64,000 bases of DNA from Escherichia coli (GCF_003334405.1 NZ_QOWM01000005.1); one strand, 5' to 3'. Positions 37,103-41,233 are shown, counted from the stretch's first letter. Program-made: numbers and translations. The notes: a model not told the origin generated them from the sequence alone.

Positions 37103-39199
37103 TTAGCGGAAATTGACGCTACGGTCGCTGGTCATGTCATACAACTGGAACTTACGCCCAAGTTGCTGACCACCGTCACGCGTCAGCGGCGTCCAGCCAA
37201 TCGCCGCACGGCTGCGTGTCGGGCCAGACGAGAAGAGATCCAACGGTACCGAGACATACACGCCTTTGGTGAAGTCCCCTTCGCCGTACTCCTCTTTCGA
37301 AACATTAGTGATCGTGGCATAGCCACCCACCACCACGCCGCTATCAAAGCGTTTGGCGATCTCCAGCGTGCCGCCTTTATCCCCTGCCAGATACTGCCCG
37401 ACGCTGGCTTTAACTAACACATCCTGAGCGAAAGATGGCGTCCAGTAGGCGGTCAGATGTCCGGTTTTCACGCTGTAGTCGGTGAATTTCATCATATCTT
37501 TTGCACTACGCCAGTCGCGCTGTTTAACGTAGTTGGCATCCAGACCAAACGCCCAGTTGCTGTCCAGCGGGCGATACAACACTTCTGCCCCCGCACCGCC
37601 AAACATGGTTTCGAGATAACCACCGTAGACCTGACCGTAGAAGCCGTTGCCCAGATGCTGGAAGTAGTTGGCTTGCAGGTTATTCACATAGACATCGTTC
37701 TGCACATACTCGCGCACATGGGTACGCACGCGCGGTAAGTGCGAGTCCTGCGGAGGATTAGTGTAGTTAAACTTGTCGTAGTTGTTGGCAAGATTTGCAA
37801 ACAGGCTGCCGGTGGTCAGCAGATGGTCCGTCAGCCACAAATCTGCCGTTCCCATCACGCCCAGCTGATACATGTAAAAGTTTTCCGGGCCACCGACCGA
37901 CTGGTTCAGCACCGGATCGATATGGAAATCAAAGCGTGATTTGTCGATATACCAGCCCTGCTCGGTGGACTGCGGAACCACTGGCTCGACGCGTTTTTGC
38001 GCCAGCGTCGTTTCGTGGCCCAACGGCTCTCCGGCGAGATGATTTTTCAGGCTGGCGACATCGGTTTCCGTCGTCACCTGCGGCATGTTAAGGCGATTTT
38101 CCGTAATGCGGATCGTTTTGATCCCATCCGGCAGATCGTTCATCACGATCCGATTCGCACGGATGATCCCTTCGCGCGAATCACGATATTTCACCTGCTC
38201 GCCGGTAACATACAGCGTATCGCCTTTCGCCTGGATCTGTGGATCGGCAAGTCCGGCATTGTATTTCAACAGCGTTAACTGATTCGCCACCACCGAATGC
38301 TGCAAAATGGCATCCTGCGGCTGCGGTTGATATTGCGGGCGGGCGTTATCGTTGTAAGACGGGCGCAGATCGTTAAAGTTGGTGCGCAACGTAACGCCAA
38401 ACATAAAGGTGTTGCCACGTTCATAGCTAAGGTTAACGTCGGCCCAATCGGTAACGCGATAAATCGCACCGACGTTAAACTTACTTTTTTGCTCCAGCTT
38501 CCCGGCAAAATCCTGCTGATAATTATTGCCTTCATACTCCAGTTTCAGGCGCAGCGGTTGCCAGGGCGTCTGGTATTCCACGCCGCCAAACAGTGAGGCA
38601 GGACCGTGGAACATCTGGCTACCGTCGATAGATCCCGCCTGTTTGTAGCTGTTATCGCGATAGCAATATTTATCACTGGCTGAACAGAGCGGATTTTTCA
38701 CATTACCGCTGGTGCCCAAATATCCCCAGCCCAGGCCGAGCGTAAAATCGAACGGCCCCCAGGCTTTGCTGGCAACAAGATATTCCGCATCAAACAGCCC
38801 CGTACCGCCGATATCCCGCGCACCAACCGCCACTTGCGGCAGCCAGTAACTCTCTTCCCACAAACGCAGTTTGAGATCGAAGGCTTTATCTTTATACGTT
38901 TGATCGCCAGAGAACGCTTCGACGCTGCTGTACTGCCGGGTGCGCACGTCGGTGTAGCGCAGCGTTGTTTCCAGCCACGGGAAGAGTTGCACTGAAGCTG
39001 AGTAATAACGGTACTGATCGTTATCGCGATAGTTCAGACTCAACTCCCCTTCCCGTGCCATACGCGCGGTGGGCGTTTGTAATAATCCTACGCCACCGAA
39101 ATCCGACTGCGACGGACCAATGGGCGCAGGATATGTTTCGCCGTAGCAAGCTGTGCTAATGCCCAGCGCCAGTAAGCTAAGCAGATGTCTTTTTTTCAT
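37103..39199 (-). CDS. yjbH: YjbH, GfcD-like outer-membrane beta-barrel lipoprotein (698 aa)
   Basis: ORF 37103..39199, [20 protein letters not shown] lipoprotein-type signal, C-terminal ...RSVNFR; last gene of yjbEFGH. Confidence 0.88.
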
Positions 39200-39936
39200 T
39201 ATTGAGGTATCCGCTGCGTCAGAGTCTGAAGAATGTCGGCGTTAAGGGCATCAGGCGTCTCACTCCAGACGGAGTCCGCGAGGCCAACATAAATAATGCT
39301 GCCGGGCATCGGCTCTACGTGACGCTTGTTCCAGTAAGCCACCGGCGCTTTTTGCGTGCGTCCGTCCGGGTAAACCACCCACGCGTAGCTGCGATCCGCA
39401 CCGCTGAGCAGGCTCTGGTCAGAGAGATAGCTCGCCACGTCGCGACCTGGAGTGAATGGCTGCTTGCCAGGACGGCTGATAAGCCCGAACAACGTGACCG
39501 TGGACGGCGGTGGTCCGACCCACAGCGTGTAGTTGCCCTGCAACGGCGGGTTACCGCGTTCGGCAACGCGGACGATATCGGGATCAAGATTGATTTTTTG
39601 CCTGCCCGTCACTTTCAACGCCTGAATTTGCTGGCGTAAGGCGTTAATCGCAGCGGCATCGTCGGCGCTGGAATCTGCGCCCTGTTCTGCCAGCCGTGTC
39701 AGCAACGCCTGCTGCTGACGCAATGCTGCCGCCGTTGCCAGCTCTTCGCTAATCACCGCACCGGGCCACCAGCTGTTTGCCAGCCGCGGTTGGCCTACCA
39801 GATCGATTAAATGCTCTGCGCCCGTTAGCGTTTTGGCCTCACTGCTGCCATTGCTGAACACCTTGACGGTTCCTGCCGCGAAGACCGATGACGCTCCCAC
39901 ACTCAAAAGCAACGCGACAATAGTTTGTTTAATCAT
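39199..39936 (-). CDS. yjbG: YjbG, GfcC-like periplasmic protein (245 aa)
   Basis: ORF 39199..40032 trimmed to [27 protein letters not shown] signal peptide; stop overlaps yjbH start (TAATG). Confidence 0.85.
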
Positions 39937-40571
39937 TGTTTTGCCGCCTTGATGAGAGTGGTTTTCACCGGAAAATAATCCGCGCCGAGATACTGTTCCG
40001 ACTGGCGAATTTGCCCTTCGCTGTCGATCCAATAGCGGTTATGCCAGCGCGCCTGGTCGGTGGAGACTTCTTCGTCCAGCACGCGAACCGGGGTTTCATC
40101 GCTGCCGACTTTGACGGTATCGGTGCCATCCCATTTGAAGACTGAGCGTGCGGTGGCGTAGCGTACCTGCTGGTACTCGGTCCAGCCCATCGTGCGCGTC
40201 CAGCTTGCGCCATCAACGATTTGTGCGGGTTTAATCAGCGGGTCGGCAGCAAGGTTATTCACTTCAATCAGGTTGTCGCCGCCGAGCAGAGTCTTCACCA
40301 GACGGCCATGTTGGGTAACGAGAGTAGCCTGATCCTGAGTGACCCATTTTTGTTGTCCGTCTTCAGCGAAGGCCAGCACCACAAATAACTGCGGCCCGCC
40401 ATTAAGCTGCATGTACTGGCTGGCGTAGGGCATATTTTGAATATCATCATCCGTCAGCTGTACGCCTGGCGTGCCGAACAGACTGTCCCACAGTGAATTG
40501 CCCAGCTCTTTAGTCGTGGCTGAACAGGCCTGTAATAACAGGCAGATAAGAATGAGTGCAGGTCGCTTCAC
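39933..40571 (-). CDS. yjbF: YjbF, GfcB-like lipoprotein (212 aa), GTG start
   Basis: ORF 39933..40601; GTG at 40569-40571 gives (M)KRPALILICLLLQACSATTKELG lipobox; 4-nt overlap with yjbG start. Confidence 0.8.
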   Translation of the reverse strand: MKRPALILICLLLQACSATTKELGNSLWDSLFGTPGVQLTDDDIQNMPYASQYMQLNGGPQLFVVLAFAEDGQQKWVTQDQATLVTQHGRLVKTLLGGDNLIEVNNLAADPLIKPAQIVDGASWTRTMGWTEYQQVRYATARSVFKWDGTDTVKVGSDETPVRVLDEEVSTDQARWHNRYWIDSEGQIRQSEQYLGADYFPVKTTLIKAAKQ

Positions 40572-40684
40572 GACTCTTCTCCAGAGGGGCAGAATAACCA
40601 CACCGGAGTGTGGTTATGGTTAATCCCTTCATACTTCTAGCCACAGATGCAATGACTCGAATTATTTTGGGGATACATACTTTA

Positions 40685-40927
40685 TTACTGGGTACTGGTG
40701 GTCGTGGTTGTGGTGGTCCCGGTATTAGAACCATCACCGCCACCGGTTGCCGCAAGCGCGACACCCACCGCCGAGCTTACGGTGCTGACGCTGGTCGCGG
40801 AGGAACTCCCCGCCGAAACCGACGTTGCTGCCGACCCTGCCGCTTCGCCCACCTGTACAGGTGCAGCCCACGCAGAAGTCGCCGCAAGCGCAGATATGGC
40901 AAAAATGCCATACAGAACTTTTTTCAT
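40685..40927 (-). CDS. yjbE: YjbE, GfcA-like secreted Ala/Ser/Thr/Gly-rich low-complexity protein (80 aa)
   Basis: ORF 40685..40927, [52 protein letters not shown]...[15 protein letters not shown]. Confidence 0.85.
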
Positions 40928-41233
40928 AACAATTTCCCTTCATTGAATGAATGGAGATTTACCCAAAAACATTTCGGGCGGGATCGAGTATACACAACTA
41001 AAGCATGCGAATTACGGCGCGGGGAATTAGCGATGGCGTTTTAGGATAATTGGAATGAATATCAAATATAAGTTTCAACTTATATTTAAATAACAATAAA
41101 AATCATAAACTTAAAATAAAAACAAAAGCAATTAATCTGCGTATTTTCCGAAATAAACAACGATTAAAAATCTATTTTAGGATTAACCTCATGGTATGAT
41201 TTCCGTTAAATCACAGACAAGGGGATTTATCTG

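Follow-up and report, generated by a model that had tools for sequence, protein, structure and literature searches.

Within a 64,000-nucleotide stretch of Escherichia coli DNA (GCF_003334405.1, NZ_QOWM01000005.1; hereafter the window), positions 37103–41233 carry yjbEFGH, a chromosomal operon paralogous to gfcABCD, one half of the group 4 capsule operon. The explanation that best accommodates our analysis, and one in which we place considerable confidence, is that this gfcABCD-paralogous operon encodes a late-stage outer-membrane glycan machine together with an excess of its small first product, YjbE. The operon is already known, and its paralogy, gene overlaps, control by the Rcs envelope-stress phosphorelay, mucoid phenotypes and two-barrel model have all been published. 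The only part that might be new to specialists is a conserved terminator hairpin after the first gene, which no paper recovered in our literature search discusses.

Identity of the operon and its paralogy with gfcABCD

The window between ~34.5 and 43.1 kb corresponds to a K-12-like E. coli chromosome in reverse, running through xylE (+), psiE (−) and yjbT (+), and then yjbH, yjbG, yjbF, yjbE and pgi (−); over 9501 bases it has four single-nucleotide polymorphisms relative to MG1655. The original prediction, made from this DNA alone, had proposed four co-oriented genes, and open reading frames (ORFs) were recovered where it had placed them, with calls identical to the MG1655 annotation (b4026–b4029). 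The strand, which it left unstated, is minus, so that the operon runs from right to left and its upstream side is the high-coordinate one (40928–41233). The genes are as follows:

40685–40927, minus strand: yjbE, 80 residues
39933–40571, minus strand: yjbF, 212 residues from a GTG start with a GGAG Shine-Dalgarno sequence (the mechanical ORF reaches 40601)
39199–39936, minus strand: yjbG, 245 residues, ATG start
37103–39199, minus strand: yjbH, 698 residues

Both the position of the operon, between pgi and yjbT–psiE, and its gene lengths of 80, 212, 245 and 698 residues identify it as the orthologue of the annotated locus, and the pgi–yjb–yjbT/psiE synteny extends to Citrobacter, Salmonella arizonae, E. 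whittamii and Pseudenterobacter. The 4.3-kb yjb stretch is covered to at least 80% in 5414 of 5426 complete E. coli genomes, nearly always at 95% identity or more. The four ORFs are genuine genes rather than chance readings, given their Pfam E-values, their presence in these 5414 genomes and the ratio of non-synonymous to synonymous differences in yjbE (pN/pS ~0.12 across 13 species). No glycosyltransferase, flippase, polymerase or Wza/Wzb/Wzc gene was found in the yjb locus, whose neighbours are pgi, yjbT, psiE and xylE.

The products of the last three genes fall into the families expected from the gfc parallel. YjbF matches PF11102 (E 8.6e-64, residues 25–206), has a relative in the PDB, 2IN5 (YmcC, the GfcB paralogue; E 3.3e-43), and begins with a readable lipobox, LLQA-C, with Ser at +2; it is predicted to be an outer-membrane lipoprotein of the GfcB family. 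YjbG, predicted to be a periplasmic GfcC-family protein, carries both the N- and the C-terminal GfcC domains (PF20616, E 1.2e-49; PF06251, E 1e-42), a type I signal peptide (VFA/AG), and a PDB relative, 3P42 (the GfcC paralogue), aligning over residues 20–245 (E 2.2e-55). YjbH spans nearly the whole of PF06082 (E 1.3e-270, residues 30–691, model positions 1–657 of 658), which places it, by family match, among the outer-membrane proteins of the GfcD family. It has no sequence relative in the PDB, and the YjbH family has no solved structure. Lipobox, type I signal peptide and ORF length all agree with the initial description of YjbF and YjbG as lipoprotein or periplasmic proteins and of YjbH as a 698-residue protein. 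No NCBIfam family was matched at E ≤ 0.01 by GfcA, YjbT or any of the four operon products, and a PADLOC scan of the small proteins gave no match.

The GfcD/YjbH family is reported to be the largest among multi-barrel outer-membrane proteins, with 4,187 members (PMC8346858). Published models predict two barrels on either side of a middle domain in the periplasm; the N-terminal barrel is FapF-like and has 12 strands, and the C-terminal one has 13 strands and opens laterally. In simulations on the GfcD model, lipid A tails exit through this opening (PMC8346858, PMC9603273, PMC11494523). MG1655 labels YjbH a ‘putative lipoprotein’, and the aligned cleavage sites read ACHA/EV in GfcD and ACYG/ET in YjbH. 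Because experiments show that the homologous GfcD carries no acyl group and that signal peptidase I cuts it at the corresponding site (A21/E22; PMC8592465), YjbH probably has a type I signal peptide (…ACYG/ETYP) and is not a lipoprotein, in which case the label is wrong. The yjbH homologue of Citrobacter koseri NCTC10786 (3696–5790 of the fetched locus) aligns as two pieces in different frames, residues 1–531 and 532–698, which points to a frameshift, due either to a pseudogene or to an assembly error.

Pairwise BLASTP of the Yjb proteins against the MG1655 gfc locus established three of the four genes as clear paralogues in the same order: YjbF and GfcB share 39% identity (E 2e-54), YjbG and GfcC 42% (E 2e-67), and YjbH and GfcD 65% over 696 of 698 residues, both proteins being exactly 698 residues long. 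The first pair behaves differently, as YjbE and GfcA show no BLASTP similarity (E = 65) and GfcA does not match the Pfam YjbE model (PF11106). The two nevertheless have a common order of parts—a signal peptide, a Ser/Thr/Ala/Gly-rich stretch, a Gly/Ala/Val hydrophobic stretch, a GDG motif and a Thr-rich tail. When they were aligned colinearly without composition correction, composition-matched shuffles reached the observed score in 0 of 2000 global trials and in 1 of 5000 trials on the C-terminal halves. The gfc parallel drawn in the original prediction therefore stands as homology for three genes, while for the first gene it amounts to a shared architecture and, possibly, to very distant homology. 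The case that would have told against it, namely no detectable Gfc similarity and no envelope or exopolysaccharide phenotype, is contradicted by paralogy at 39–65% identity and by the published phenotypes considered below. In papers citing Ferrieres 2007 (including PMC8592465, PMC8117528 and PMC5461412), that study is credited with describing the yjb operon as a gfcABCD paralogue linked to exopolysaccharide.

The resemblance extends to operon layout. In both operons, a small Thr-rich secreted protein, a lipoprotein, a periplasmic protein and a 698-residue outer-membrane protein are encoded in the same order; the 4-nt and 1-nt gene overlaps are identical; and a spacer of ~106–113 nt with a hairpin follows the first gene. 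The differences are equally clear. Whereas gfcE–etp–etk (Wza/Wzb/Wzc paralogues) accompany gfc, the genes past yjbH are a convergent yjbT and then psiE and xylE. Because gfcE–etp–etk are absent after yjbH, the paralogy of the yjb operon is confined to the ABCD module, and yjb is not a group 4 capsule locus. Furthermore, yjb is Rcs-controlled and the literature has not identified its polymer, while gfc handles the O-antigen capsule. Beyond this pair, a core of these three genes, together with a small first gene, also occurs in the Vibrio orf1-wbfDCB, Aeromonas gfcABCD and other GfcBCD-type clusters (PMC8592465), and the distant loci that we sampled share with yjb the gene order, the tight F/G/H junctions and the Thr-rich first gene. 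Many GfcBCD-type clusters adjoin wza-wzb-wzc or sugar-nucleotide genes (e.g. our loci L029, L030 and L032), whereas E. coli yjb stands alone between pgi and psiE.

The first gene and the hairpin that follows it

YjbE had been described as a secreted low-complexity protein with a poly-Thr end, and this is what its sequence holds: a signal peptide ending AWA/AP, a mature part that is 76% Ala+Ser+Thr+Gly, and, in order, an Ala/Ser/Thr/Gly-rich stretch, a short hydrophobic VGVALAA, a GGGDG motif and a Thr7-Ser-Thr-Gln tail. The whole PF11106 model is matched (E 5.5e-33, model positions 1–79 of 79). The gene is under strong purifying selection, unusually strict for a low-complexity protein. Over its last 28 codons (40685–40768, minus strand), pN is 0.003 against a pS of 0.35; the C-terminal tail is identical in 12 of 13 species despite ~35% synonymous divergence, and the Thr7 run keeps its length in all 13 while its codons vary. 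A substitution pattern this strict speaks for a tail that is modified or engaged in a specific interaction. A word-indexed search for YjbE homologues yielded nothing beyond enterobacterial sequences and variants marred by frameshifts or errors, and was uninformative on distant relatives; one such variant (P0027) lies on a contig in which pgi and yjbH are fragmented.

Between yjbE and yjbF, the 113-nt spacer contains a stable hairpin:

40594–40617, minus strand: hairpin AUAACCACAC-UCCG-GUGUGGUUAU, 10-bp stem, ending 22 nt before the yjbF start

Its folding energy is −14.8 kcal/mol (z = −5.0), and 11 of 12 Enterobacteriaceae keep the stem unchanged despite gains or losses of 45–50 nt in the flanks. 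The U tract that follows reads UCUGCC, a decayed form, in E. coli and UUUUG outside Escherichia. A hairpin and a U-rich stretch also follow gfcA, where the spacer fold is not significant (z = −0.8).

The distant homologues offer a broader view of this element. A search with YjbF against 1.84 billion cluster representatives retrieved 548 clusters at E ≤ 0.001, from which we took the contigs (L028–L036) of nine full-length YjbF-homologue representatives with 26–46% identity, a small sample with no matched control set. In 8 of these nine loci, an ORF of 74–120 residues with the YjbE/GfcA architecture lies directly upstream of the yjbF homologue; on the ninth contig, only the Thr-rich 3′ end of such a gene is present. 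Three of the 8 first-gene products match PF11106, and the end of one metagenomic product bridges the YjbE and GfcA tails. In a longer subtype of 112–120 residues (L033, L035 and L036), a Cys-x(n)-Cys segment (…CPDGEELQNGQC…, …CEDGETLVDNVC…) separates the hydrophobic stretch from a tail rich in Thr and Val.

In all nine distant loci, the spacer after the first gene holds a GC-rich hairpin and a U run, with stem sequences that are unrelated to one another. Among all terminator-like sites in a locus, this hairpin ranked first or second in 5 of the 6 loci scanned. In most of the nine, gene 2 starts only 10–41 nt after the terminator, too close for it to have a promoter of its own. On this comparison, we take the E. 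coli hairpin to be the same element as the distant terminators, with its U tract apparently decayed. Because a terminator-like hairpin follows yjbE, YjbE is probably made in excess, and the comparative pattern suggests the same of the small first-gene protein relative to the FGH machine more generally. We regard the combination of first gene and terminator as a lead, not a result.

Operons of the fimA/papA pilin type carry an attenuating stem-loop or terminator after the gene for their first, abundant subunit. They resemble yjb in having a small secreted first product, a stem-loop, and then closely packed assembly genes that include an outer-membrane pore. They differ in that there is no homology, YjbE is of low complexity rather than a folded pilin, no fibre has been seen, and attenuation in yjb is read from sequence.

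The regulatory region and the surroundings of the operon

The AT-rich region of about 300 bp noted upstream of yjbE in the original prediction was confirmed by measurement, with a GC fraction of 0.28–0.34 over ~40900–41300 against ~0.52 in the flanks. The following features were delimited in and around it:

40930–41235, unstranded: AT-rich regulatory spacer from the pgi terminator to yjbE, 28–34% GC
41178–41191, minus strand: candidate RcsB/RcsAB box TGAGGTTAATCCTA, 251–264 nt upstream of the yjbE ATG
41042–41055, minus strand: second, putative RcsB-type half-site TTCCAATTATCCTA with core AATTATCCTAA (41052–41042), ~50–70 nt upstream of the putative transcription start
40928–40992, minus strand: candidate core promoter and 5′ leader, with a −10-like TATACT (40992–40987) in the invariant block TTGTGTATACTCGA and a weak −35
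41124–41273, plus strand: match to Rfam STnc430, an enterobacterial small RNA candidate (79 bits against a gathering score of 47), running from the AT-rich spacer into the pgi terminator hairpin
41090–41117, plus strand: sigma-70-like site ATAACA-16-TAAAAT, ending 7 nt before the STnc430 match
41241–41263, minus strand: pgi intrinsic terminator, a 10-bp stem and TTTTTAT, marking the upstream limit of the yjbE regulatory region

Published data place the yjb operon in the RcsA–RcsB regulon (PMC5461412, PMC5651002). A strict search for the RcsAB box (TAAGAATATTCCTA, at most 3 mismatches) found no site in the yjbE upstream spacer. On a relaxed, position-weighted reading, TGAGGTTAATCCTA fits all six strongly conserved positions of TaAGaatatTCctA, and it also fits 13 of the 14 positions of the RcsB box TN(G/A)GAN4TC(T/C)NA (Huesa et al. 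2021, PMC7913699). The suggestion of an RcsAB-box-like motif upstream of yjbE thus fails for the 14-mer within three mismatches and holds for this looser form. The pattern TNAGNNNNNTCCTA has 2 matches in the window against 0.74 expected. Other RcsAB-box-like sequences in the window, TAAGTCATATCCTA and the palindromic TAAGGACATTCTTA, lie at 26113–26126 (−) and 16795–16808, and their totals are within chance expectation.

Scanning one genome per species with the 19-mer TGAGSTTAATCCTAAAATA gave 23 loci. Fourteen belong to Enterobacteriaceae (Citrobacter species, Salmonella enterica arizonae, Escherichia whittamii and Pseudenterobacter), and all of these have the match in the pgi–yjbE spacer, 261–276 nt upstream of the ATG in the 12 whose fetched part includes yjbE. 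The remaining 9 are unrelated taxa or operon-less loci, as chance would give. Conservation of the box within this set follows from the way the set was chosen; separate support is given by Rfam, where the complement of the TGAGGTTAATCCTA box falls within the conserved part of the STnc430 consensus. Because of this overlap, the STnc430 family may partly reflect a conserved operator, and MG1655 has no small RNA annotated at the match. Two of the four differences from MG1655 fall inside the AT-rich spacer, at 41192 (adjoining the candidate RcsB box) and 41212.

The remaining elements were compared in an upstream alignment of 13 species, in which AATTATCCTAA, TTGTGTATACTCGA and the leader blocks were not selected for. 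The half-site core AATTATCCTAA is kept in 13 of 13 species and has 5 mismatches to the RcsAB consensus. On the yjbE strand, no promoter emerged from a simple sigma-70 scan, and it is only by conservation that the proposed −10 is recognized. The leader of ~53 nt (40928–40985) is almost invariant across genera and contains a small hairpin, CCAUUCAU-nnn-AUGAAGGG, over the Shine-Dalgarno sequence, in which only the loop bases vary; its fold is not significant by energy (z = −0.87). The complex regulation surmised from this region is a reasonable expectation, as the spacer holds conserved operator-like boxes and a possible divergent small RNA.

Downstream and in the flanks, two further features adjoin the operon:

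36778–37056, plus strand: yjbT, 92 residues, a secreted PF17089-family protein, convergent with yjbH
37062–37092, unstranded: hairpin AGGUGCCAGU…ACUGGCACCU in the 46-nt yjbH/yjbT gap (−23.5 kcal/mol, z = −3.4)

The hairpin in the gap is probably a two-way terminator that ends both the operon and yjbT. ORFs antisense to or overlapping yjbE and yjbH (e.g. 40610–41044, 40698–40946 and 37037–37417, all plus strand) were rejected, as they lie inside well-supported genes with freely varying third codon positions. Repetitive extragenic palindromic elements (Rfam naRNA4) give a strong match just past pgi (41339–41409, 79.5 bits), which with the pgi terminator delimits the AT-rich spacer on its upstream side, and a weak one between psiE and yjbT (36643–36735, 29 bits). 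Insertion sequence IS1 clusters around yjb and gfc operons: E. coli PM7 has an IS1 inside the pgi–yjbE spacer, with the remaining sequence a 100% match to the window; MG1655 has one 34 nt upstream of gfcA (8779–9546 of the gfc locus record), with yjb intact in K-12; and insertions in the yjbE–yjbF spacer and in yjbF have been published (PMC8117528).

Proposed mechanism and competing explanations

In the mechanism that we favour, the operon is switched on by the Rcs phosphorelay through RcsA–RcsB, as published. YjbF and YjbG would then form a complex that docks on YjbH, by analogy with the measured behaviour of their paralogues: GfcC and GfcD are recovered in pull-downs with GfcB, and GfcBC has a dissociation constant of 9 μM for GfcD (PMC8592465). 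Translational coupling through the gene overlaps would keep the amounts of YjbF, YjbG and YjbH matched. The resulting complex would act as a late-stage outer-membrane device, passing or anchoring a surface glycan made by enzymes encoded elsewhere, and the C-terminal barrel of YjbH may free the lipid anchor sideways into the membrane. YjbE, expressed from the same promoter, would accumulate in surplus over the machine through partial termination at the terminator-like hairpin, and would serve as cargo or as a surface component rather than as a stoichiometric subunit; the terminator pattern and the invariant tail lend this new, circumstantial support. A functional likeness is found in LptD/LptE, where a lateral-gate barrel with a lipoprotein partner likewise delivers a lipid anchor into the outer leaflet with the glycan outward, as proposed for the GfcD-type barrel (PMC11494523). 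The two are unrelated in sequence; YjbH consists of two barrels with a middle domain in the periplasm, and its gate comes from simulation on a GfcD model.

Several points weigh against this mechanism. The polymer handled by YjbEFGH has never been identified in the literature (PMC5461412, PMC11494523), in keeping with the original prediction, which had called it poorly defined. The overproduction of colanic acid by mutants could reflect outer-membrane damage that triggers Rcs rather than a role in export. For both the YjbF–YjbG–YjbH complex and the lateral gate, the mechanism extrapolates from experiments on GfcBCD and from simulations that used an AlphaFold model. The best box and the putative −10 downstream of it, both of them candidates, are ~200 nt apart, a long distance for an activator. 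Finally, the hairpin after yjbE lacks a proper U tract in E. coli, so attenuation may be weak in this species, and published fold-inductions are similar for yjbE and yjbF (PMC3599342, PMC5105897).

Expression and phenotype data bear most directly on what the machine handles. The operon is reported to be induced by osmotic stress, peptidoglycan damage and damage to lipoprotein trafficking; all four genes are co-induced by colicin M (log2 4.3–5.7; PMC3599342) and by a LolCDE inhibitor (5- to 46-fold; PMC5105897). Exopolysaccharide phenotypes, named as a check in the original prediction, have been published for E. coli mucoid mutants and for a Salmonella deletion. In a predation experiment, 4 of 4 sequenced mucoid clones, and no non-mucoid clone, carried mutations in yjbE, yjbG or yjbH (PMC8540638). 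An IS1 in the yjbE–yjbF spacer raised colanic-acid output, and mucoidy there tracked the shed fraction of the polymer (PMC8117528). In Salmonella, a yjb deletion altered capsular uronic acid and peptide sensitivity (PMC5461412).

These mutants could be read in another way, namely that YjbEFGH exports no polymer of its own and is an Rcs-induced module for outer-membrane maintenance or anchoring that retains colanic acid or a glycan linked to lipopolysaccharide. Mutants would then be mucoid because polymer is shed, while the damaged envelope keeps Rcs on. We hold this, the main rival, as a tentative possibility. The E. coli phenotypes fit it as well as they fit the glycan machine, and a locus without biosynthetic genes is in keeping with it. 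It sits less easily with the report, as relayed by papers citing Ferrieres 2007 (PMC8592465, PMC8117528, PMC5461412), that overexpression of the operon gives an exopolysaccharide distinct from colanic acid, and with the treatment of yjb and wza deletions in Salmonella as removing two different polymers (PMC5461412).

A further alternative shifts the emphasis from glycan to polypeptide. Here YjbE, like GfcA, would be an abundant, disordered and possibly O-glycosylated Thr-rich polypeptide that is secreted by way of YjbH, through its FapF-like N-terminal barrel, to form or anchor the surface layer, with YjbF and YjbG acting as periplasmic escorts. The idea has a precedent, as Larson et al. already speculated that a modified GfcA is exported through GfcD, and GfcB has a LolA-like fold (PMC8592465). 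The YjbH/GfcD N-terminal barrel is reported, from fold recognition, to resemble the amyloid exporter FapF (PMC8346858, PMC9603273); the likeness to FapF/CsgG pores also takes in a small, unstructured secreted potential client, and it ends at YjbE, which is without amyloid repeats. To this may be added the YjbE-like gene that immediately precedes the yjbF homologue in all nine distant operons (the ninth by its 3′ end only), the terminator after gene 1 in every one of them, and the near-absence of non-synonymous change in the YjbE tail. Even so, we consider this account unlikely: GfcA is annotated as an inner-membrane protein; E. coli K-12 is not known to have a general O-glycosylation system; and the E. 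coli hairpin has a weak U tract, with yjbE and yjbF induced to similar extents.

The same observations could be carried one step further, to a general role in which GfcBCD/YjbFGH machines are dedicated to an abundant, secreted, Thr-rich, ‘mucin-like’ first-gene polypeptide whose gene is universally linked to the machine and set apart from it by a conserved attenuator, exported through or completing the two-barrel protein, and used as a capsule anchor or scaffold. The C-terminal GGGDG-x-NTG-Thr7-STQ tail would be its recognition or attachment signal. We rate this generalization as quite improbable at present.

The glycan-machine reading also takes the amounts of its three parts to be matched, for which the gene junctions are the relevant evidence. 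The overlaps in the original prediction can be read directly from the sequence: yjbF and yjbG share 4 nt (ATGA, in caATGAtt), and the yjbG stop and yjbH start share 1 nt (TAATG, in caaTAATGaaa). Both are kept in 9–10 other Enterobacteriaceae and at the gfcB/C and gfcC/D junctions. Larson et al. 2021 already reported overlaps of 1–4 bp and inferred translational coupling from them (PMC8592465), and the junctions seen here suggest the same for yjbF–yjbG–yjbH. In the distant operons, F/G and G/H overlap by 1–4 nt or are separated by at most 13 nt, while the gap after gene 1 is always 57–138 nt. ATGA and TAATG junctions are widespread in bacterial operons. That the overlaps are merely ordinary genome compaction, without a role in protein ratios, is very doubtful, given that the same two junction types persist in the gfc paralogue despite 39–65% protein identity and in 10 other genera or species, that the distant operons pack F, G and H and never gene 1, and that GfcB, GfcC and GfcD form a complex and a natural GfcC–GfcD fusion exists (PMC8592465).

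As originally stated, the yjbEFGH finding re-describes a named and published operon and adds nothing new. What our analysis adds is a conserved, near-consensus candidate RcsB-type box, purifying selection on yjbE with an invariant tail, and terminator hairpins after gene 1 in 9 of 9 distant operons. The comparative pattern as a whole—the first gene, its terminator, the apparently coupled FGH genes and the invariant tail—makes the published speculation on GfcA testable.

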